This document shows, in pieces, positions 1-9,339 of a stretch of 64,000 nucleotides of DNA. The notes beneath the pieces are model-generated. The model was not told the DNA's origin and did not search any database. It saw only the letters and a program-made list of their open reading frames with translations. The position numbers and the translations under genes were made by a program. The stretch is taken from IMG/VR virus record IMGVR_UViG_3300021088_000008, positions 9,219 through 73,218 of that record; one strand, 5' to 3'. Position 1 is the stretch's first letter. Every line of letters begins with the position of its first letter. This stretch comes from a virus.

Positions 1-2
1 GC

Positions 3-1076
3 GGCGATCGAACCACGCTGTATTTTTTCGATGAGGAGGCCCACCACCCGCGCCAGGAGCTCGTAGCAGCTGCTCTATCGCAGACGACCAATTGCCAGAT
101 CGGGATGAGCTCGGTCCGCGGCATGAACAACCTGTTCGCGCAGAAGCGCTGGGGCGGAAAAATCGACGTCTTCATTTTCGATTGGCGTGAGGACCCACGC
201 AAAGATGAGGCCTGGTACGAACGCCAGTGCGAAGACTTGGACCCAGTCATCGTCGCCCAGGAGATCGACCGGGACTATTCGGCCTCGATCCATGGTGTGG
301 TCATCCCGGGCCTGTGGGTGCGCGCGGCGATCGACGCCAAGAAAAAGCTCGGCATCGCGCCATCGGGCAAGAAGGGCGTTGCGTTCGACGTCGCCGACGA
401 GGGGGACGACAAGAACGCGATCGCGCGCTGCGAGGGGACCGAGGTCGTCGAGACCGACGAATGGAGCGGCAAAGGCGGCGATATCTTCTCGTCGACGGAA
501 TACGTCTTCGATGTCTGCGATGAGAACGGATACCCCGAGTTCCGATACGATGCCGACGGCATGGGCGCCGATGTCCGCGGTGACGCCCGGGTGATCAACG
601 AGCGCCGCGTCAAGAACAAGGCGCGGGTGATTCGGGCGATCGGCTACCGTGGCTCGGAGAGCGTCTATGACCCTGAAGGGATCGTCGAGGGCACCATTGG
701 CTCAGAGGGCGACGCCGGCCGCACCAACCAAGACTATTTCGGGAATCACAAGGCGCAATCGTGGTGGTCGCTACGGAAGCGGTTCCAGCGGACTTATCGC
801 TGGGTCGAGACCGGCGTGACGTGCGCGCCGGACGATATCATCTCGCTGAATTCCGAGAATCCGAACCTGATGAAGCTCGTCGCAGAGTTGAGCCAAGCCA
901 CGTACAAGCAAAACGAGGTCGGTAAGATCATCATTGAAAAGAAGCCGAATGGCCGGAAGAGCCCGAACCAGGCCGACGCTGTTGTGATCCATTACGCGCC
1001 GATGGAGCAGCCACCGGTCGAGATCACGATGGACATGCTGAGGCAGATCGCGCAGGCAGGCGCACGGAGAAGATAG
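3..1076 (+). CDS. terL: Terminase large subunit, 5'-truncated by the window edge
   Basis: Frame open from nt 3 (GDRTTLYFFDEEAH, Walker B-like). C-terminal RNase H-like nuclease motifs AFDVADEGDDKNA, YDADGMG and KSPNQADA. Upstream of the portal. Confidence 0.9.
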   Translation, partial: GDRTTLYFFDEEAHHPRQELVAAALSQTTNCQIGMSSVRGMNNLFAQKRWGGKIDVFIFDWREDPRKDEAWYERQCEDLDPVIVAQEIDRDYSASIHGVVIPGLWVRAAIDAKKKLGIAPSGKKGVAFDVADEGDDKNAIARCEGTEVVETDEWSGKGGDIFSSTEYVFDVCDENGYPEFRYDADGMGADVRGDARVINERRVKNKARVIRAIGYRGSESVYDPEGIVEGTIGSEGDAGRTNQDYFGNHKAQSWWSLRKRFQRTYRWVETGVTCAPDDIISLNSENPNLMKLVAELSQATYKQNEVGKIIIEKKPNGRKSPNQADAVVIHYAPMEQPPVEITMDMLRQIAQAGARRR

Positions 1077-1140
1077 ACATCGAGGATAAATTTCCCCATA
1101 ATTGTTCGGATCGTCCCTCTATAAAGAATGGTGACCCCAC

Positions 1141-1440
1141 ATGTCGATTGCTGAAAAAACCTCGGATGCCTGCATGGAACGAGAGTTGAACCTCTTGGAA
1201 GACGGAAAGCTTCCGCCCGACATCTGGATTTCTGATGAAAAATGGTTTCCTTATGCTGTGCCTGGGGCTGTGCATCACATCGAAGTCGCCAACGCTCGAC
1301 ATTGCACGATAAATATGATCACGCCAAGTAGGTCTGATCCATTGAAGAAATACTCTCAATTCTATCTCTCGATGGTTCAGATGGCGAAGAACTTGAAAGA
1401 CGTCGGACGGCTGAAGTTTCACGGAAGTGCCGAAGGTTGA
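1141..1440 (+). CDS. Hypothetical protein (AT-richer insert)
   Basis: 99-aa ORF after terL, visibly lower GC than its flanks, no recognisable motif. Confidence 0.5.
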   Translation: MSIAEKTSDACMERELNLLEDGKLPPDIWISDEKWFPYAVPGAVHHIEVANARHCTINMITPSRSDPLKKYSQFYLSMVQMAKNLKDVGRLKFHGSAEG

Positions 1441-1739
1441 TCACCGATTCGGAATGGCTGGCGATGCTCGATATCTATCGCGCCGACGAGAAGCCGGCGC
1501 GGAAATCTGGGAATAGGCCGCGCGCGGCGCTGGACACGGGGGACAAATCTCCCTATATCGTTTGACGGCCCAGACGGTAGCCGACGCACCAAGGCCATTT
1601 AGCGGGTAAGTTCGGTGGGACTATCGAGTGCAGCCCCGGCCAGACGAAGGCGACACCGCATTCGATCTCACGCGGTAGAAGACCGCGGACCTCCATGCTG
1701 GCGGTGGGCCCTCCAAGTCGCCGCTGGCATGGATCAACG

Positions 1740-1782
1740 AAGGCGGCCGAGAAAGCGCCCCCAGCTCGGCCGCCTTTTTGTT
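1740..1782 (+). terminator. Intrinsic terminator-like hairpin
   Basis: AAGGCGGCCGAG-loop-CTCGGCCGCCTT followed by TTTGTT. Confidence 0.7.
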
Positions 1783-1937
1783 CCATGTTTCCTCCGTCTA
1801 GGAGCTTACGCGCGGAAGGCAAAAGACGGTGCGACACCTGCATAGTGGTGTGGCTTAGGGAAGGACTGGCGGCCTTCGGGTGCGGCCCAGCGGTGGAGAG
1901 AACCGGTCCCTGCTATTCATTTCGGAGCTTGTTCGTC

Positions 1938-2150
1938 ATGAAACGGACCCGGAAGTACGTGATCAGACAGAAGCCTAGGCGGCATGTGTCGGTTTCGGTT
2001 GCTGCGGCGAAGAAGGGCTGGCGCACTCGGCGTAAGCTCGCGCGGGCGGCGCCGCCTATTCTGCTCCGCCTGCTGGACGAGGTTCAAGCCGAAAGACGAC
2101 GGGGACGCGGCCTGACCCGCCGGCTTGAATCCATCCGACTTTGCAGATAG
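1938..2150 (+). CDS. Small basic Arg/Lys-rich protein
   Basis: ATG at 1938 with GGAG about 10 nt upstream. MKRTRKYVIRQKPRR...AAKKGWRTRR. Confidence 0.35.
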   Translation: MKRTRKYVIRQKPRRHVSVSVAAAKKGWRTRRKLARAAPPILLRLLDEVQAERRRGRGLTRRLESIRLCR

Positions 2151-2261
2151 AAAAAGAAAGCCCGGCTCGAGTTTGCGACTCGGCCGGGCAAATCCGCAGG
2201 CATCCTTGGCAGGGTTTGCGGAAGTTGGTCAGATCTTTGAATAGACGCAAGCATGCTCTTT

Positions 2262-2811
2262 TTCAAGATCAAAATGTTCAAAAATGTTCAAAAAGTTCAA
2301 AGATGCCTGCCAGCCCGGCTATCGCCGATTGAGCCTCGGATCATCCTTCATCGCAAAGCGAGCCTCGCCGTAGAACGGAGCGAGGGAGTAACGGCGAGCG
2401 GGAACTTCACCTTCCGACCGCGATCGATTGCCGCCAAGGGGATCGATCGGAAACTGAGGCAAGTACGGCATTTTTGTTTCCTGTTTGCGGGAGAGTGATT
2501 CGCAAGCCCGGGCGGCTGGCCCCCGATATCACGGGCACCTCAGCTCTACTCGCTGCCACCCTCGGGGTGGAATGCTTGGTACCTCAACCGCATGGCATAG
2601 ATGCCGGGTCTTGCGGAAGGACGGCTATGCCTTTAACAGTTCAAAGAATGTTCAAATGTTCAAAGCCGGGGTGATTCGATGGCGCGCGGCGGATTTCGGA
2701 AAAACAGCGGACCGAAGCTTGATGCAGATGGAAAGGCATTGAAGCCGTACAAGCGTCGCGATGGGGAAAGTTCAGAGAGTTCAAACGGGGAAAGTTCAAA
2801 CGTTGTTCAAA
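2262..2811 (+). repeat. Three clusters of GTTCAAA-type direct repeats
   Basis: GTTCAAA at 2276, 2286, 2295; 2639, 2650, 2658; 2779, 2794, 2805. GTTCAGA at 2770. GGGGAAAGTTCA occurs twice (2763, 2787). Confidence 0.85.
2360..2635 (+). ncRNA. Candidate structured non-coding RNA
   Basis: Nested complementary segments: CGGCGAG 2392 / CTCGCTG 2549, CTGAGG 2454 / CCTCAG 2538, GCCCG 2506 / CGGGC 2532, GGCATAG 2594 / CTATGCC 2625, plus local hairpins. No convincing ORF. Strand assumed. Confidence 0.4.
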
Positions 2812-5800
2812 TGCGTGCGGCCAAGGCTGTGCCGGCCGAGCCAAAGGCCGAAGATGACCCTGCGATCAATCCCCGCGCCTGGGCGATGATGCTCCCTGAG
2901 ATCGAGGAGATCAGCCGGCGGTATTCGGCGAAGAAAGAGCGGACGTCGGCCGACAACCCGTTCCAACTGCCAGCGTTCCCCAAGGCCGCGGTTCCATCCG
3001 ATCCCAAGCTGCTGATGGCGCAGGACAGCGCCCTAACGGCAAATCTGGGGTTCGCCTCGAATCAGTGGCTCGCCGGCGGCGATGGCGGGTTCGCCGGCGA
3101 AGGGTTCATGTTCTTGGGCTACACCTACCTGTCGGAGCTCGCGCTGCGCCCCGAGTACCGCGTCATGGCCGAGACGATCGCGGATGATGCGACCCGGAAA
3201 TGGATTGATTTCGACGTCGTTGGCGATGAGAAGACGCAGCAGGAGGACCGCGAGAAGGACCCGGCCGGCTACGACGAGCGCATGGCCGATCCAGACGAGC
3301 GCAAGAAGCGCGTCAACGGCGCCGGCAAGACGGACAAGGTCAAGGCGCTGCAGGACGACCAGCTGCGCCTGGCGGTCCGCGACCGCTATTACGAGCAGGC
3401 GCGCAACGGCGGATTCTTCGGCCGCAGCCATCTCTTCCACGACATCCGAACCAACGATTCGGACGACATCAACGTCGAGGAGCTCAAGAACCCGATCGGG
3501 AATGGCCGCGACGCGCTCAGCAAGACCAAGGTTCCGATAGGATCGTTCAAGGCGCTGAAGACGATCGAGCCCATGTGGGCCTACCCGCTGATGTACAACG
3601 CCGCATATCCGTGGCGCCAGGACTGGTACAATCCGCAAGTCTGGTACGTGAACGGCCAGGAGTTTCACGGCTCGCGGTTGCTGACATTCATTCCGCATCC
3701 GGTGCCGGACATGCTCAAGCCGGCCTACGCGTTCGGCGGGCTCAGCCTAACCCAGATGGCGAAGCCGTATGTCGACCGCTGGGTCACCACCGTCTCGAGC
3801 GTGAACGCGCTGATCCACTCGTTCTCGGTCATGGTTCTCGCGACCGATCTGTCGACGCTGATGCAGCCAGGCAACATGGCCGCACTGATGGCGCGCCTCG
3901 CGATGTTTAATATGTTGCGCGATAATCAGGGCGTTTTTGCCATCAACAACAAGACTGAGGACTTCAAGAACGTCTCGGCCTCGCTGGCCGGCTTGCACGA
4001 GCTCCAAGCGCAAAGTCAGGAGCATATGTGTGTTCAGGCCGGAACCCTAATCGAGACGGACCGCGGTCCAGTCCCGATTGAGGGCATGACCACAAATGAT
4101 CAGGTGTTGACCCGTAATGGCTTTGCTTCTATCAACTGGATAGGAGTTACCGGGCACGTCGACACTTTGATCAGAATCGAGGCTGGCGACTCCATTATCT
4201 CGGTCACGAAAGAGCACCCGATATGGTCGGAGACAGCCGACGATTTTGTCGCTGCGAAGAATGTGAATCCTTCCCACCGCCTCTTCGTGCTCGAAACCGT
4301 AAGCCCGGGAAATATGGGTCGTCCATCGCTTGGCGAGGTCGATGGTGGTGGCATACGAAAGAGGGCTATTACCGCGGTCCTATCCCGGACGGCTATGAAA
4401 TCCATCATGGCGATGAGGATGGCACCAACAACGAATGGGGCAATCTTGAGTTGCTCACCTATTCAGAACATCAGGCTCGCCACATTCGGATTGGATTCAA
4501 CGTCTACGATCGAACATACGCGAAAAAATGCGTGGTTTGCGGCGATGGTTTCACGAGCGTTTTCGTGGGTGAGAGATCTCGGTATTGCTCTCAATCCTGC
4601 AAATCAAAAGCCCTCAAAATTCGACGTGGCTGGAAACCTAGGCGGGATCCGAAGCGGTGCGAATGTTGCGGAGATATGTTCACGCCAATACGTAAAAGCA
4701 CCACTAGATTTTGTTCTGACAGATGCTATCAGCGCGACGGATACCGGAAACGCCGTGGCTCACTCGACAAGAGATGCCTCCATTGCGGCGGGAAATTCAC
4801 CCCAAAGCGAATCGATTGCAGATGCTGTTCTCCTGCGTGCAACCGCTCGCTCATTAACCAAAATCGGCGCGTTCAACGTGCCGCGACAGCCCGTCTATAA
4901 CATCTCAGTTGCGAACGGATTTTTGCCAGAATTCTTCGCCAACGGAATCCTTGTTCATAATTGCTCCGTCAATCGGATCCCGCTCGTCAAGTTCACTGGA
5001 ATCCAGCCTGCTGGGCTGAATGCATCGTCGGAAGGCGAGCTTGAGTGTTATGACACTACCATTGAGGGCTATCAGGCGCGCGTCCTCGACGGCAACCTGA
5101 GAACCACCATTAACCTCGAGCAACTCTCGTTGTGGGGCGAAATAGATCCGGAAATTACGCACCGATGGGAAAAGTTGCGACCGATTACGGAAGCCGAGCG
5201 CGGCCAGAAGCAAAAGGACGACGCGGACACCCGTGAGAAGTACGTCGACATGGGTTCGTTCTCGCCGCAGGAGATCCGCAAGATCGCGATCGAGGATCCG
5301 GAGTTGCCGTTTGGGGGGTTGGATCCGGATGACGTTCCGAAGCCGCCGGCGGAGGAGGGCCTGCTCGGGCCTGGCGCGGGCGCCGCGGCGACCGAGTTCG
5401 AGAAAGAGGCCAGCGGCCAGGGCGGCGACAAGCCCGACAAGGGAGGCGGGGCTAGCGATGCCGTCCTCCCTTTCCTCGCGGGCGACGCTGAGTTCGTGGA
5501 ATCGGACCACCCGCGCGCGCCAGACGGCAAGTTCGGAAGTGGCGGGGGAGCATCAGCGCCGGCCGAGCATCCCCATGGGAGCACGCCGAAATTCCACGCA
5601 ATGGTCACCAAGCACAAGATTCCAGAGGCGGCCAGTGAAGTCGCTAAGTCGGCGCGCGCGCTCAAACAGAAGCAAAGCACCGTTGCCAAATACGCGAAGT
5701 ACATCACTTCCCTCAACGAGAAGGTGGACGAGATTACGAATTCATCCTCTTCGCCGGATCAGCTCATCTCGTTGCGCGACTTGGCTGAGGCTCCGACACC

Positions 5801-6554
5801 CGACGAAATTAACGATTTCGCGCGCGGTCTGGTCCGTGAGGGCAAGGTCAAGGACGTCCTTGGATTCGAGGACGATAAGGATGGATTCAAGGACTTGATG
5901 GAGGAGCTCAGCCCGCAGGAGAAGCAAGACCTGATGATGCTCAAGGGGCGGCTGGAGGCGCTTTACCCGAAGGCATTCGAAGCGGCAAAGGAGACCCGTA
6001 AGATCGCGCTCGAGACCGAGAAGGCGATGAAGGTCATGCGGAAGCGGATCGACAAGTCGCCATCGTATGACGATTTCGATGACCCCGACGATATCGAGCA
6101 TCTCTATGCTGACCAGATGGCTACGCTCTTTGATCAGGACCCGGAAGACCTCGATGATCTGATCGGCGTCACGAGCTATCTCGCTGATGAGCCAATATCG
6201 GCCGAATATGCCGAAATCCTCCACGGTCAGAAGGAGGACATCGACGAATCGGCCGCCGAGCGGCGACGGTTCGACGCGCTCTCAGAAGAGGAGCAGGCGG
6301 AGGAATTGGCGGAAAAGGCCGAGAAAGAGCGACTAGATAAGGCGATGGAGGACAAGCACCGAGAGTTGACCATCGAAATCGCCATGCGAGACGGCTGGAA
6401 ACCGGAATTCAATGACATCGGCAGCGTGACGAATCGGCCTGAGAGCGTGAAACAGGTCGCGTCATCGCCGACCAGCATCGGGAAGATGTACCGATTCCTG
6501 AAGGCATCCGGCGTTGAGATCCCAGAGGCCGGGAAGCGATTCCTGGATTGGTGA
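2679..6554 (+). CDS. Portal protein (DUF1073 family) precursor with an intein and a ~355-aa C-terminal extension
   Basis: Follows terL. Motifs F(L)GYTYLSELALRPEYR, PDMLKPAYAFGGLSLTQ, RDNQG and IPLVKFTGIQPAGLNASSEGE are typical of DUF1073 portals. Confidence 0.9.
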   Translation: MARGGFRKNSGPKLDADGKALKPYKRRDGESSESSNGESSNVVQMRAAKAVPAEPKAEDDPAINPRAWAMMLPEIEEISRRYSAKKERTSADNPFQLPAFPKAAVPSDPKLLMAQDSALTANLGFASNQWLAGGDGGFAGEGFMFLGYTYLSELALRPEYRVMAETIADDATRKWIDFDVVGDEKTQQEDREKDPAGYDERMADPDERKKRVNGAGKTDKVKALQDDQLRLAVRDRYYEQARNGGFFGRSHLFHDIRTNDSDDINVEELKNPIGNGRDALSKTKVPIGSFKALKTIEPMWAYPLMYNAAYPWRQDWYNPQVWYVNGQEFHGSRLLTFIPHPVPDMLKPAYAFGGLSLTQMAKPYVDRWVTTVSSVNALIHSFSVMVLATDLSTLMQPGNMAALMARLAMFNMLRDNQGVFAINNKTEDFKNVSASLAGLHELQAQSQEHMCVQAGTLIETDRGPVPIEGMTTNDQVLTRNGFASINWIGVTGHVDTLIRIEAGDSIISVTKEHPIWSETADDFVAAKNVNPSHRLFVLETVSPGNMGRPSLGEVDGGGIRKRAITAVLSRTAMKSIMAMRMAPTTNGAILSCSPIQNIRLATFGLDSTSTIEHTRKNAWFAAMVSRAFSWVRDLGIALNPANQKPSKFDVAGNLGGIRSGANVAEICSRQYVKAPLDFVLTDAISATDTGNAVAHSTRDASIAAGNSPQSESIADAVLLRATARSLTKIGAFNVPRQPVYNISVANGFLPEFFANGILVHNCSVNRIPLVKFTGIQPAGLNASSEGELECYDTTIEGYQARVLDGNLRTTINLEQLSLWGEIDPEITHRWEKLRPITEAERGQKQKDDADTREKYVDMGSFSPQEIRKIAIEDPELPFGGLDPDDVPKPPAEEGLLGPGAGAAATEFEKEASGQGGDKPDKGGGASDAVLPFLAGDAEFVESDHPRAPDGKFGSGGGASAPAEHPHGSTPKFHAMVTKHKIPEAASEVAKSARALKQKQSTVAKYAKYITSLNEKVDEITNSSSSPDQLISLRDLAEAPTPDEINDFARGLVREGKVKDVLGFEDDKDGFKDLMEELSPQEKQDLMMLKGRLEALYPKAFEAAKETRKIALETEKAMKVMRKRIDKSPSYDDFDDPDDIEHLYADQMATLFDQDPEDLDDLIGVTSYLADEPISAEYAEILHGQKEDIDESAAERRRFDALSEEEQAEELAEKAEKERLDKAMEDKHRELTIEIAMRDGWKPEFNDIGSVTNRPESVKQVASSPTSIGKMYRFLKASGVEIPEAGKRFLDW
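4029..4961 (+). mobile_element. Intein (311 aa, portal residues 451-761)
   Basis: Block A CVQAGTLIETDRG, block B VTKEHPIW, block F VYNISV, block G FFANGILVHN followed by +1 Cys. Removing it restores a portal-like QSQEHM-CSVNRIPLVK. Confidence 0.93.
4223..4900 (+). CDS. HNH endonuclease with three CxxC...CSxxC zinc-finger repeats, nested out of frame inside the intein
   Basis: GPIPDGYEIHHGDEDGTNNEWGNLELLTYSEHQARH, then CVVCG..YCSQSC, CECCG..FCSDRC and CLHCG..CCSPAC. Frame is -1 relative to the portal. Confidence 0.85.
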   Translation: MVGDSRRFCRCEECESFPPPLRARNRKPGKYGSSIAWRGRWWWHTKEGYYRGPIPDGYEIHHGDEDGTNNEWGNLELLTYSEHQARHIRIGFNVYDRTYAKKCVVCGDGFTSVFVGERSRYCSQSCKSKALKIRRGWKPRRDPKRCECCGDMFTPIRKSTTRFCSDRCYQRDGYRKRRGSLDKRCLHCGGKFTPKRIDCRCCSPACNRSLINQNRRVQRAATARL

Positions 6555-6557
6555 GGA

Positions 6558-7199
6558 TCAGCGAGGCTTGATTGAGGTCATTGCAGCGCGGCCGATATAC
6601 TCGGCATAAGCCGGTGGGATCGCCTGGGTGATCTCGCGCCAGTTCATCCAATCGATGCCCATGGCATCGCGAGCTTCGCCGATCGATCGTGCCCTCGGGA
6701 TTCTGTAACCGTCCCCGAAGTGACCTTGCGGATGCTCGCCATATACTCCCACGAGCCGCTTGCCGCGGCACGAGCATTTCTTCCATATGCAGCAACCGAA
6801 GCTAGTTTCGAAGAGCCGATGGCGGCGAACGCCAAGGCCGAAGTGGGTACCGCATAGCGTCATCGCGTTGCGCAGAGGCGCCCCGATCACGTTCTCGATC
6901 ACGGTCATCGGGCATGCGGCCAGCAATTTCCGCACATCGGCAATCAGCGAAACATGGGAATTATCGTTCCACGAAGCGTTGAATCCGACATGCGCCTGAC
7001 ATGGAGGGCTCGCCCATACCAAATCGAAACGCTGTAAATCGAATGGCAGCCGAAGCGCGTCGGCCTGCACGAATCGGAACGGATAAGCAGGCTGCGGTTT
7101 ACTGTCGACGCCGATCAAGTCGAATCCGGCCCGATGCAATCCCATGGATGCACCACCGGCGCCGCAGAACAGATCAAGAGCAATAGGCCTGTGGTTCAC
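6558..7199 (-). CDS. DNA cytosine-5 methyltransferase (short phage type)
   Basis: Motif I LDLFCGAGG, motif IV SPPCQ, motif VI ENV, RRHRLF and C-terminal QAIPPAYAEYIG. Confidence 0.88.
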   Translation of the reverse strand: MNHRPIALDLFCGAGGASMGLHRAGFDLIGVDSKPQPAYPFRFVQADALRLPFDLQRFDLVWASPPCQAHVGFNASWNDNSHVSLIADVRKLLAACPMTVIENVIGAPLRNAMTLCGTHFGLGVRRHRLFETSFGCCIWKKCSCRGKRLVGVYGEHPQGHFGDGYRIPRARSIGEARDAMGIDWMNWREITQAIPPAYAEYIGRAAMTSIKPR

Positions 7200-7390
7200 A
7201 GCAGGTCCTCTTTCCTGAGCTTCCCGGCGATCAGCAGCTCAATCACCTTCGCAACGAGCTTCGGGACTGGACCATCGCCGGCTGCGATTCGCTGCGCCTG
7301 CCGGCGGCCGATCCCGAAATACAGGGCGGCGCCGACGATCGTGATGCCGAGGCTTTTCAGGGCGGCGCGGTATTTGGCGGGGGTCATCAA
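7196..7390 (-). CDS. Small HTH DNA-binding protein
   Basis: MTPAKYRAALKSLGITIVGAALYFGIGRRQAQRIAAGD..PVP, XRE/Cro-like pattern. Confidence 0.7.
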   Translation of the reverse strand: MMTPAKYRAALKSLGITIVGAALYFGIGRRQAQRIAAGDGPVPKLVAKVIELLIAGKLRKEDLL

Positions 7391-7695
7391 CTCAGGATCT
7401 CGGTGAGGACCGAGGCCAGCGGGACGGGCGGCAAGCGATTGTCATACAGAAGCTTGCTGGTATCCAAGAAGCCCGTGAATGCGTCGAACTTGTTGCTGAG
7501 TGGCTGATCCCAGACGCGGCCGTTATAGGAGATGTGCCCGATGGTCTCGGTGGTGCCAGCGATATAGACGTTGACTGGGCGGAAGGTGGAGCATCCCTCG
7601 CCGCTCTCGTCTCGGATCTCGCAGTAGCATTCCGATAGCCACTTCAGATCGCCTTGGTGCATTTCACCGCGGATATTGGCGTAGAATTTGGTCAT
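7387..7695 (-). CDS. Hypothetical phage protein
   Basis: AAGGA RBS, motif IGHISYNGRVW, 4-bp overlap with the next gene. Confidence 0.65.
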   Translation of the reverse strand: MTKFYANIRGEMHQGDLKWLSECYCEIRDESGEGCSTFRPVNVYIAGTTETIGHISYNGRVWDQPLSNKFDAFTGFLDTSKLLYDNRLPPVPLASVLTEILS

Positions 7696-7777
7696 GGTGT
7701 GATCCTTCAGTTCGCTGTTACCAGCATGAAGATGGCGTAGAGCATTGCGACGGTGACGGAGGCGGCGAGGAGGTCCA

Positions 7778-7960
7778 TCACTTGGCCTCTTCGAGATTTA
7801 TTGCCGCTCGCAGTTCCTGTTGGAACTTGTACAGTTCAAAAAGGGCATGGCCTTCTCGGCTTTCATAGCCGTAATTGCCAGGAGCGCCGAACGCTGCATG
7901 GATCTGCAGGATTTGCAAATCCGCCTTTCTGGCTGCTTCAAGTAGGGTCATCGGTGCCAT
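7778..7960 (-). CDS. Hypothetical protein
   Basis: ATG at 7960 with GGAG RBS, downstream of a sigma70-like promoter. Confidence 0.55.
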   Translation of the reverse strand: MAPMTLLEAARKADLQILQIHAAFGAPGNYGYESREGHALFELYKFQQELRAAINLEEAK

Positions 7961-7985
7961 AATGCGCTCCCGTTTCGATGACCAA

Positions 7986-8013
7986 ACCATACGCCCTCCC
8001 GAGAATACGTCAA
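7986..8013 (-). promoter_or_regulatory. Sigma70-like promoter for the antisense cassette
   Basis: On the minus strand, TTGACG-N16-TATGGT upstream of 7960. Confidence 0.45.
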
Positions 8014-8097
8014 TAGGTCGCATCAATAAATCGTAGATATTTATCCCCGATTGTGCAATATGGGCGGAACGGCGATAATGACCGAATGGAGGTTCCA

Positions 8098-9339
8098 ATG
8101 ACCGACCCAGCAATCCACGATGAGGCCTCGCGCCAGGCGAGCGGGCCGGCCGACGCCATCCGAGACGCGCACGACAATCTCAAGGCGGGGATTGAGATCA
8201 TGGGATGCGTTCATGACATCCCGCCCCAGATCCACAAAGCCATGCACGCGCTGAGCTATGCGGTGAAGGCGGCCGCCGCTCTGCCGACAGCTCCAGAACC
8301 CGGTTGGTTGCAGCCGGCGTTGGATTCTGCGGCTAAACGGGCCAATGCAATGCCGGATTGGATGGTTAGGCGAGATGCTGCTCCTCCCGCGGTGAAGATG
8401 TCGGCTGATGCGCCAACATTCCAGCGTCGCGCTCAGGATTGGATGATGGCTACGTTCTCCATGGAAGTCTGTCGCGACACCATCGAGCGCAATCACCGCT
8501 TTCTTGAAGAGGCGCTTGAGCTCGTACAAGCTCTTGGATGCACCGCCAGTGAGGCACATCAGCTTGTCGATTACGTCTATGGCCGTGACCAGGGAGAGGT
8601 CAACCAGGAGATCGGCGGCGTCATGGTGACATTGGCCGCGCTGTGCTTGGCGAACGATCTTGATATGCATCAGGGGGGCGAAACCGAATTGGCGCGCGTC
8701 TGGACCAAGATTGATCAGATCCGGGCGAAGCAGGCATCGAAACCAAAACATTCTCCGTTGCCTCAGACAGCCGACGCCAAGGCAGAGCCGCTGCGGAGCA
8801 ATAACGTTTTGATGCGTGATATAGCGGACACATTCGAAAAGGTCCGTATCGTACTTCGTTGGACAGTGAAAAATGCGCGCAAGGTCGGCCCCATGTATAG
8901 TCACGCCAATACTGCGATGTGGGCGCTAACCGAAACCGAAAAGAAACTGATTTCCATTCTCGCCGCCCCTCCCGCCGTGGACAGAGCCGCGCTCGCTCAG
9001 GCAATTCGCAAAGCACTCATTGAAAACTGGCGAGAAGACCTAGGGGCCAAGTGGGACGAGGATGTGCTGCTCACTGGCTGCCGAAAGGTTGGCGGCGGGC
9101 GCGGCTATCAAAACGCCGAGGAAGCAGCCCAAAATCTGGCATTGGATGCCGCTGATGCTGTCATCAAACTCCTGCCAACAGACGTGGACAGAGTGGCGGT
9201 GATCGAGGCGGGAAAACAAGCGAAATTCAGAGGTAGCGAAGGAGGATGGTTCGGGGTTACACCAGACCATAATAATCCGGATTCGTTCGAATATCGCACC
9301 ATCTACGCCCTCGCCGATGCCAAGGGGGATGGGAAGTGA
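8098..9339 (+). CDS. Mosaic protein with a MazG-like NTP pyrophosphohydrolase domain
   Basis: ERNHRFLEEALELVQA...QEIGGVMVTLAALC (EExxE pattern of all-alpha NTP-PPases). GGAGG RBS before ATG 8098. Confidence 0.7.
   Translation: MTDPAIHDEASRQASGPADAIRDAHDNLKAGIEIMGCVHDIPPQIHKAMHALSYAVKAAAALPTAPEPGWLQPALDSAAKRANAMPDWMVRRDAAPPAVKMSADAPTFQRRAQDWMMATFSMEVCRDTIERNHRFLEEALELVQALGCTASEAHQLVDYVYGRDQGEVNQEIGGVMVTLAALCLANDLDMHQGGETELARVWTKIDQIRAKQASKPKHSPLPQTADAKAEPLRSNNVLMRDIADTFEKVRIVLRWTVKNARKVGPMYSHANTAMWALTETEKKLISILAAPPAVDRAALAQAIRKALIENWREDLGAKWDEDVLLTGCRKVGGGRGYQNAEEAAQNLALDAADAVIKLLPTDVDRVAVIEAGKQAKFRGSEGGWFGVTPDHNNPDSFEYRTIYALADAKGDGK

Follow-up and report, generated by a model that had tools for sequence, protein, structure and literature searches.

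In the textbook intein, the homing endonuclease is an in-frame domain. Here we describe an intein in the portal gene of a virus (IMG/VR record IMGVR_UViG_3300021088_000008) that is very probably a two-frame element: the portal frame would encode a splicing intein, and the −1 frame of the same DNA a separate HNH homing nuclease. We refer to the whole stretch analysed, 64,000 nucleotides at positions 9,219 to 73,218 of the record, as the window; it is part of a 73,218-base virus record that is rated complete. A layout of this kind is already described. Out-of-frame intein nucleases are in print in papers from the Gogarten laboratory (2025-26), and the few papers on such endonucleases, in the parts drawn on here, call them rare. 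Two of these papers (bioRxiv 10.64898/2026.09.14.751524 and 10.1101/2025.01.02.630785) credit Gorbalenya 1998 with the first proposal of non-canonical inteins.

Gosselin et al. (bioRxiv 10.1101/2025.01.02.630785) describe actinophage inteins with an endonuclease VII-like nuclease in "reading frame 3", as well as antisense LAGLIDADG or VSR-like nucleases, and propose that a free-standing endonuclease gene invaded an intein. As in the window, a same-strand nuclease open reading frame (ORF) lies between the splicing blocks while the host frame stays open, and the hosts, like those of the family described below, are essential phage genes that include the large terminase. The differences lie in the nuclease and the host. 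In the sections of that preprint on which we rely, the out-of-frame nuclease is endonuclease VII-like and the HNH domains are all in frame, whereas the window has an out-of-frame HNH; the non-canonical forms come from actinophages, and portal is absent from the four host proteins listed there, supplementary tables aside. Phillips et al. (bioRxiv 10.64898/2026.09.14.751524) report a +2 ORF for a LAGLIDADG endonuclease inside a cyanobacterial dnaX intein. This intein shares with the window element the relative frame, a low ratio of nonsynonymous to synonymous substitution rates (dN/dS) in the endonuclease frame with a raised host-frame dN/dS over the overlap, and, in the portion of the text considered here, no reported in-frame relatives. 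It differs in that the nuclease is a LAGLIDADG enzyme and the host a bacterial chromosomal gene, compared with an HNH in a phage packaging gene.

Closer in nuclease type is the ShiLan domain (Arsenault et al., Genes 2025, PMC11855218), in which an HNH nuclease with zinc fingers is encoded out of frame within an insertion in a mycobacteriophage DNA methylase. Like the window element, it hides an HNH out of frame, has a stop codon at the very end of the insertion and shows a patchy, homing-like distribution. As that paper presents it in the passages used here, however, ShiLan has no Hint or splicing domain and its in-frame reading is thought to stay in the methylase. In the window, a complete Hint domain brackets the hidden HNH ORF, and the filler peptide between the Hint halves could therefore be spliced out. 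In fractured genes (Dassa et al., NAR 2009, PMC2677866), the intein is split and a free-standing endonuclease gene stands between its two parts. Here too a separate nuclease gene occupies the position of the endonuclease domain, its 3′ end overlaps the C-terminal intein part, and a phage terminase is among the hosts. In that paper's account, the host lies in two ORFs and the nucleases are GIY-YIG or Vsr-like, whereas the window host frame is continuous and unbroken over 2679-6554. The split form does occur in a relative of the window element, in Vibrio phage 1.245.O.

The homing endonuclease I-HmuI resembles the window nuclease in being of the HNH_3 type and differs in being intron-encoded. 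To our knowledge, it has no CxxC zinc ribbons. What is apparently new at this locus is the nuclease family, the host genes and the two-frame form as the rule in a widespread family. In the literature searched, with subscription journals and supplements outside it, we found neither an out-of-frame HNH in a true intein nor such elements in portal genes.

The portal intein and its nested HNH reading frame

The features on which the argument rests are the following.

2679 to 6554, + strand: portal precursor ORF, 1291 amino acids including the intein, predicted to give 980 amino acids after splicing
4029 to 4961, + strand: intein in the host (portal) frame, 311 amino acids from Cys1 to the terminal Asn, with the +1 Cys at 4962-4964
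4029 to 4301, + strand: N-terminal half of the Hint domain, intein residues 1-91, with block B (T-K-E-H) at 4206-4217
4302 to 4829, + strand: host-frame filler, intein residues 92-267 (176 residues), open and without predicted structure
4830 to 4961, + strand: C-terminal half of the Hint domain, intein residues 268-311, with block F (PVYNISV) and block G (NGILVHN)
4223 to 4900, + strand: nested HNH endonuclease ORF in the −1 frame, 225 amino acids plus TAA
4397 to 4483, + strand: HNH catalytic core EIHH...NN...NLELL...EH..RH, HNH residues 59-87
4529 to 4600, 4658 to 4726 and 4775 to 4840, + strand: three zinc-ribbon-like CxxC...CxxC modules, HNH residues 103-126, 146-168 and 185-206

The host ORF matches Phage_portal_3 (Pfam) with an E value of 1.1e-50, and the profile is split exactly at the intein: profile positions 11-264 match ahead of residue 450, before the insertion, and positions 267-355 resume directly after 4961. 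All 311 host-frame codons of the insertion are stop-free. Cys1 is encoded at 4029-4031, block B reads T60-K-E-H63, and ILVHN followed by Cys (ILVHN↓C, where the arrow marks the splice junction) is encoded at 4947-4964, so that the nucleophile, block B and C-terminal end of a class-1 intein are all present. T60, H63, H310 and N311 are invariant in 14 relatives, and both Hint halves are conserved across the 14 inteins. In an AlphaFold model based on the 14-sequence alignment, the confidence score pLDDT (predicted local distance difference test) is 91-97 for residues 1-91 and 84-96 for residues 268-311; over the filler it falls to 29-41, with no secondary structure. A Foldseek search with the host-frame model returned 10 PDB matches at E <= 1e-3, all of them inteins, Hedgehog or BIL domains, and the match to 3ifj_A has a template modelling (TM) score of 0.77 normalised to the target, as befits a Hint fold. 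A PHROG search of the host-frame intein gave no match. One result points the other way: the Hint_2 (Pfam) score of the window intein, 27.8 bits, falls just under the cut-off of 28.4, a threshold that some relatives pass (30.1, 30.9 and 29.8 bits). Based on its motifs and predicted fold, we take the element to be a class-1-type intein in the portal gene that is predicted to splice.

The −1 frame of this DNA contains no stop from 4118 up to the TAA at 4898-4900, and the first start codon in it is the ATG at 4223; the third frame is interrupted by 16 stops along this stretch. The −1 product matches HNH_3 (Pfam) over residues 50-84 with 40.7 bits against a cut-off of 24.8 (E 1.8e-10), and it matches 18 PHROG families, the best of which is the HNH endonuclease family phrog_15471 (1.4e-19). 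HNH_3 is matched in 14 of 14 aligned ORFs, with H61, H62, N70, N74 and H83 invariant throughout, and the HNH family profile aligns to I-HmuI (1u3e) over the HNH core with an E value of 0.0011. The cysteines of the first two zinc modules are invariant or nearly so in the 14 relatives, and the ribbons presumably bind DNA. An AlphaFold model of the HNH protein has a mean pLDDT of 73.6, highest over the zinc ribbons (74-92).

These results bear out what the initial annotation had read from the letters of the DNA. It had claimed a complete portal-frame intein (C1 at 4029, TKEH, VYNISV, ILVHN↓C ending at 4961), and every feature lies where it was placed. The two frames that it called stop-free are indeed open, the host frame over 4029-4961 and the −1 frame from 4118 to the TAA. 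Its view that the middle of the host frame is filler agrees with the disordered model, and the HNH motif with three zinc fingers that it saw in the −1 frame at 4223-4900, with a stop inside block F, is confirmed as well.

The initial annotation also remarked on a shortened helix before GPIP, and this feature is real. A 17-residue segment just before GPIP is present in 13 of 13 aligned relatives and absent from the window HNH, and it includes three positions that are nearly invariant in those 13. The HNH_3 match covers profile positions 11-45 of 46, missing positions 1-10, and the segment LHR..WE.H that stands N-terminal to the core in a complete domain is not found in this copy. Additionally, the HNH model has a predicted TM score (pTM) of 0.30 with low confidence over the first 50 residues, and Foldseek found no PDB match to it at E <= 1e-3, the best sub-threshold hits being zinc-finger arrays at E ~0.01. 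All of these observations count against the two-frame explanation favored here. Because the window copy lacks 17 conserved residues, its nuclease activity is uncertain, and the enzyme may be weakened or inactive. It is possible, although we think it doubtful, that the family architecture is real and the window nuclease was recently inactivated, which would leave the intein as a splicing-only passenger and the −1 ORF in decay. The deletion and the incomplete profile match would fit such a history, as would the lack of a second copy or target of the element in the 73-kb virus record. Against it, the −1 ORF is otherwise intact at 225 codons and keeps all residues that are invariant in the 14-member alignment, the deletion leaves both frames in register, and the ββα core EIHH...NN...NL...EH is present.

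Relatives of the element and selection in two frames

Searching with a pattern built from three aligned HNH ORFs, we identified relatives on 14 viral contigs and at three genome loci, two of them copies in an Acetobacteraceae metagenome-assembled genome and one in Asaia astilbis, on the same contig as one viral locus. The alignment-based scan was required; a single-protein pattern scan of the genome contigs found no relative. All 17 of these viral and genome loci show one arrangement: the HNH frame is contained in a far longer open frame at +1, stops close the third frame, and the long frame can be read as an intein (C or S as first residue, TxxH-P, VY(N/D) and ...HN↓S/C). Their hosts are Phage_portal_3 portals or large terminases. 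A metagenome scan returned 266 relatives, and we scored the layout in the best 80 of the 266: 61 are nested in the −1 relation and 19 are present as their own ORF only; neither in-frame placement in a long ORF nor nesting in the other frame occurs in these 80. Removal of 8 ambiguous or truncated loci and 4 duplicates left 67 loci, which collapse to 53 elements below 80% HNH identity. A regular-expression search located an intein end of the form ...N↓C/S in 51 of the 53, 1-79 nucleotides (median 55) past the HNH stop. At E <= 1e-5, host ORFs matched Phage_portal_3 (18), Terminase_6N (10) and Terminase_3 (9). There are at least 53 distinct intein-HNH units, in portal and two kinds of large-terminase genes and none with an in-frame nuclease, and some loci recur between collections, so the counts are not all independent. 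Relatives with as little as 27-35% identity retain the same frame relation, and members of the family are frequent among phage sequences from soil, water and gut.

Selection on the two frames can be read from their codon positions. Seven inteins from one insertion site in portal genes (site a, the site filled in the window) and six from a second (site b) were aligned as DNA in a frame-agnostic way, and pairwise differences were tallied by codon position. For site a, the values are as follows.

Before the HNH start: host position 1, 0.34; host position 2 (= HNH position 3), 0.23; host position 3, 0.60
First 90 nucleotides of the overlap: host position 1, 0.25; host position 2 (= HNH position 3), 0.28; host position 3, 0.30
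Middle: host position 1, 0.31; host position 2 (= HNH position 3), 0.58; host position 3, 0.34
Last 30 nucleotides of the HNH ORF and C-terminal Hint half: host position 1, 0.165; host position 2 (= HNH position 3), 0.18; host position 3, 0.575

The peak of substitution moves from the host third position to the HNH third position in mid-intein and then back to the host third position. Site b runs in parallel, and a protein-guided alignment reproduces the pattern. This shift indicates that the Hint domain is under selection at the two ends and the HNH protein in the middle, with a short overlap where both are. In the middle, the Nei-Gojobori ratio of nonsynonymous to synonymous differences (pN/pS) is 0.43 and 0.34 for the HNH frame compared to 1.24 and 1.29 for the host frame, and amino-acid identity is 0.32-0.375 in the host frame versus 0.54-0.63 in the HNH frame. 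Purifying selection on the nuclease frame, together with a relaxed host frame over the overlap, is the signature of a non-canonical intein. The comparison of homologous inteins that the initial annotation had proposed came out as it expected, in that both frames stay open and the −1 frame is conserved with low pN/pS. The stretch under joint constraint is short:

4245 to 4265, + strand: dual-coding core, 21 nucleotides encoding host F73, V74, A76, N78 and V79 and HNH C9, C11, E13 and C14

These residues are invariant in 14 inteins in both frames, and over the overlap none of the three codon positions stands out, substitution rates being uniformly low. As one set of 21 nucleotides specifies invariant residues of both proteins, the Hint domain and the nuclease may have moved between sites as a co-adapted unit.

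Some of the statistics count against the two-frame reading. In synonymous-codon shuffles of the window HNH ORF, the host frame was stop-free in 12.7% of 5000 trials (P = 0.127). All 15 inteins have a stop-free host frame, against an expectation of 0.5-2.5 stops each from shuffles and 2-27 in the third frame; these 15 share ancestry and are not independent trials. Since the window alone is not statistically compelling, the case rests on the relatives: the layout exceeds chance weakly in the window by itself and clearly across the family.

The same comparison bears on the idea that the −1 ORF is a relic, left when one indel shifted an in-frame HNH domain out of frame and a second restored the portal frame. 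This route is plausible for endonuclease decay in an essential gene, and the openness of the host frame in the window by itself would not speak against it. We nevertheless regard it as highly improbable. All 17 viral and genome loci, and 61 of the best 80 of 266 metagenome relatives, keep the same frame relation, with no in-frame relative among these loci; purifying selection acts on the −1 frame (pN/pS 0.34-0.43) but not on the host frame; and the start and stop of the HNH ORF are conserved. Frame conservation and −1 frame selection across relatives thus contradict a relic of an in-frame domain.

That two compensating indels in the assembly or sequencing mimic two frames is a possibility we consider negligible. 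The window contig is metagenomic, at ~9x depth, which leaves some room for error of this kind. However, a separate assembly of run X1 (possibly the source sample) is identical over 3900-5100 with zero gaps, and a 227-nucleotide contig from another study is identical over 4589-4815. The initial annotation had named compensating indels as the thing to look for in the reads, and neither reads nor assemblies show any. The frame relation also recurs in independent assemblies and finished phage genomes, dozens in all. Identical assemblies and comparative data together contradict compensating indels or assembly error.

Expression, mobility and forms of the element

The start and stop of the HNH ORF are built from host codons of the Hint domain. 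In the window, its ATG is taken from the Ile-Trp codons ATA TGG and its TAA from the Tyr-Asn codons TAT AAC of block F. A candidate ribosome-binding motif precedes the ATG:

4209 to 4214, + strand: purine-rich, Shine-Dalgarno-like AAAGAG, 8 nucleotides upstream of the HNH ATG, within the Lys-Glu codons of block B, with a presumed role in initiation

Relatives have AAGGA, GAAGAG or GGAGGAG in the same place. In 7 of 8 site-a sequences, the ATG is formed from an Ile or Val codon ending in A and the Trp codon TGG of H-P-(I/V)-W, and in the eighth it lies four codons further upstream. In 5 of 6 site-b inteins, it is formed from a Lys, Arg or Leu codon ending in A and a conserved Cys codon TGC; the sixth uses a GTG start. 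In 22 of the 53 elements, the HNH ORF ends within the block F codons for Tyr-Asn or Tyr-Asp, and in the others it ends nearby. Block B was found in 35 of the 53, and a start codon lies within −45 to +30 nucleotides of its His codon in 24 of these (ATG in 20). We found no sigma-70-like promoter in 3800-5100. The HNH ORF is most likely made by internal initiation on the portal messenger RNA (mRNA). Two observations sit less easily with this route: the AAAGAG motif is weak, with weaker or badly spaced counterparts in several site-b relatives, and a family-wide rule that the HNH start adjoins block B had to be rejected, as distant members start elsewhere.

The HNH frame might instead be reached by programmed −1 frameshifting, which would yield a fusion of N-extein, N-terminal Hint half and HNH in place of a free nuclease. 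The −1 frame is open upstream of the ATG, from 4118, and the weak Shine-Dalgarno-like motifs of several relatives would also be explained. We judge this route unlikely. The start codon is kept at homologous positions through third-base choices in host codons, several relatives have a −1 stop a few codons upstream of the start, and reading of the start contexts by eye, without a formal scan, revealed no conserved slippery heptamer.

With internal initiation, the element would work as follows. Ribosomes in the portal frame would make the 1291-residue precursor, and intein residues 1-91 and 268-311 would form the Hint domain, joined by a 176-residue loop that structure prediction suggests is unstructured and that, judging from the comparison of relatives, is constrained solely to lack stops. 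Splicing would then release the 980-residue portal protein. From the same mRNA, the 225-residue HNH_3 nuclease would initiate at the internal ATG at 4223 and terminate at the TAA in block F. The patchy occupancy of insertion sites suggests that the nuclease could cut or nick intein-free portal alleles of co-infecting phages, and repair would copy the whole two-frame element into the cut alleles, i.e. homing. The element is a member of a large family of inteins found in portal and large-terminase genes; in all intein-associated copies examined, the HNH lies in the −1 frame. The explanation offered by the initial annotation, an intein that splices out a filler peptide and a nuclease made as a separate −1 product, has held up as the best one, with splicing and translation as its predicted steps. 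It is favored by the recurrence of the layout, the frame-switching selection, the disordered filler and the conserved −1 start codon. One may speculate that the layout uncouples the dose of nuclease from that of portal protein.

Site occupancy among the relatives is uneven. Site a is empty in L012-L014, and intein-free alleles read QEHMAAVHRIPL across it. The second site is empty in the window:

5022 to 5027, + strand: empty second insertion site (site b), GLNA↓SSEGE, where relatives carry a second two-frame intein of the same type

Site b is likewise empty in L004-L010 (GLNASSEGE), and both sites are filled in L002, whose portal gene carries two inteins (2807-3643 and 3704-4666) 20 codons apart, each with its own −1 HNH ORF. 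The two L002 HNH proteins have diverged, with 35% versus 59% identity to the window HNH. This patchy occupancy among similar portal exteins fits what homing predicts, with cleavage as the presumed cause. The register of the site-a inteins differs by one codon between two groups: EHM↓...N↓(C/S)S is found in the window, L007, L008 and L009, and EH(M/I)A↓C...N↓S in L002 and L004, with EHMAAV in the empty allele. The site-a intein of L007, at 2807, starts with Ser (SLPRGT), and the others start with Cys. A tract of low guanine-cytosine content at ~3900-5250 (0.50-0.57, against 0.58-0.72 around it) overshoots the window intein on both sides. The part beyond the intein could be a co-conversion tract imported with the element.

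The family also occurs outside metagenomes. A tblastn search of phage records returned 17, of which we examined seven. In Clostridium phage phiCDHM19 (L021, 2029-2718) and Acinetobacter phage Highwayman (L022, 2327-3001), a −1 HNH ORF lies inside the annotated large terminase coding sequence (CDS), which carries an intein end of the form ...VSN↓C or ...VHN↓C. The nested ORF of 225-230 amino acids is unannotated in both records, which list the terminase CDS alone. Phage phiCD119 is similar, with its terminase annotated as three separate CDS. Because the layout occurs in cultured phages (phiCDHM19, Highwayman), experiments are possible. Vibrio phage 1.245.O (L020, NC_055736.1, 2391-3431) has a split form of the element with unchanged geometry: its terminase CDS stops 78 nucleotides into the HNH ORF, the filler frame contains 13 stops, and a "hint domain protein" ORF in the terminase frame supplies block F, block G and the C-extein. 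Its structure suggests a naturally split intein that arose from the two-frame form.

Free-standing HNH relatives lie between the large terminase and portal genes in three further phages:

Pseudomonas phage PAE1 (L003), 2265-2882
Sphaerotilus phage SN1 (L023), 2378-2995
Lactobacillus phage CL2 (L025), 1875-2498

Their neighbors, terminase and portal, are the genes invaded by the intein-borne copies. This location would also suit a nested HNH that serves the phage, for example as a terminase cofactor in DNA packaging, and is not a selfish homing nuclease; packaging-associated HNH proteins adjoining terminase genes are known (PMC3592412, from the part of that paper used here). We think such a role very unlikely for the nested copies. 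Portal exteins that are nearly identical differ in whether they carry the element, and one portal carries it twice, a pattern that suits a selfish element and not an essential factor. At several insertion sites, moreover, the gene is invariably accompanied by a Hint domain.

Returning to the two-frame homing element, the free-standing forms may also explain its constant geometry. In free-standing relatives, summed over 19 loci, the frame equivalent to the host frame has about three times fewer stops than the other frame (84 vs 277), and this stop-codon asymmetry may have forced the −1 relation. In a crude regular-expression check of the 19 metagenome loci with their own ORF only, a Hint motif lies near four (three in another frame) and none near the other 15. 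The four are L053, L054, L062 and L073; in three of them the motif resembles block B and lies in the +2 frame, and in one it is a block-G motif, in the +1 frame. Too crude to yield a firm count of split against free-standing forms, the check hints at further split or differently framed arrangements.

As to whether out-of-frame coding is a fixed design of a large, old mobile-element family in phage packaging genes and not a rare accident, we consider the odds about even. If it is, the family shows a living series from free-standing nuclease gene through two-frame intein to split intein. The family offers a living intermediate for models of endonuclease gain by inteins and of split-intein origin. 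It is also a clean natural case of two proteins selected on one stretch of DNA, and provides a way to test how a nuclease dose is set independently of an abundant host protein. For annotation, the consequence is that gene callers miss the nested nucleases and that portal and terminase precursors are reported with ~180 meaningless residues.

Neighborhood of the portal gene

The portal ORF extends ~440 residues past the portal domain (window 5235-6551), a part without a Pfam match. In a relative, L010, the portal ORF is fused to NUDIX, and among the metagenome loci ART-PolyVal and Zeta_toxin are each matched by one host ORF. No Rfam families were found in window positions 1-9000. Upstream of the portal gene, a weak terminase-like ORF occupies 3 to 1076 (Terminase_3C, 23.2 bits, below the cut-off). 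The 1.6 kb between it and the portal gene (1077-2678) is without an Rfam family, and the longest ORF there, of 151 amino acids, has no Pfam match. Downstream, on the opposite strand, the portal gene adjoins a C-5 cytosine DNA methylase-like ORF at 6558-7199 (− strand), which encodes 213 amino acids and matches DNA_methylase with 25.5 bits against a cut-off of 22.

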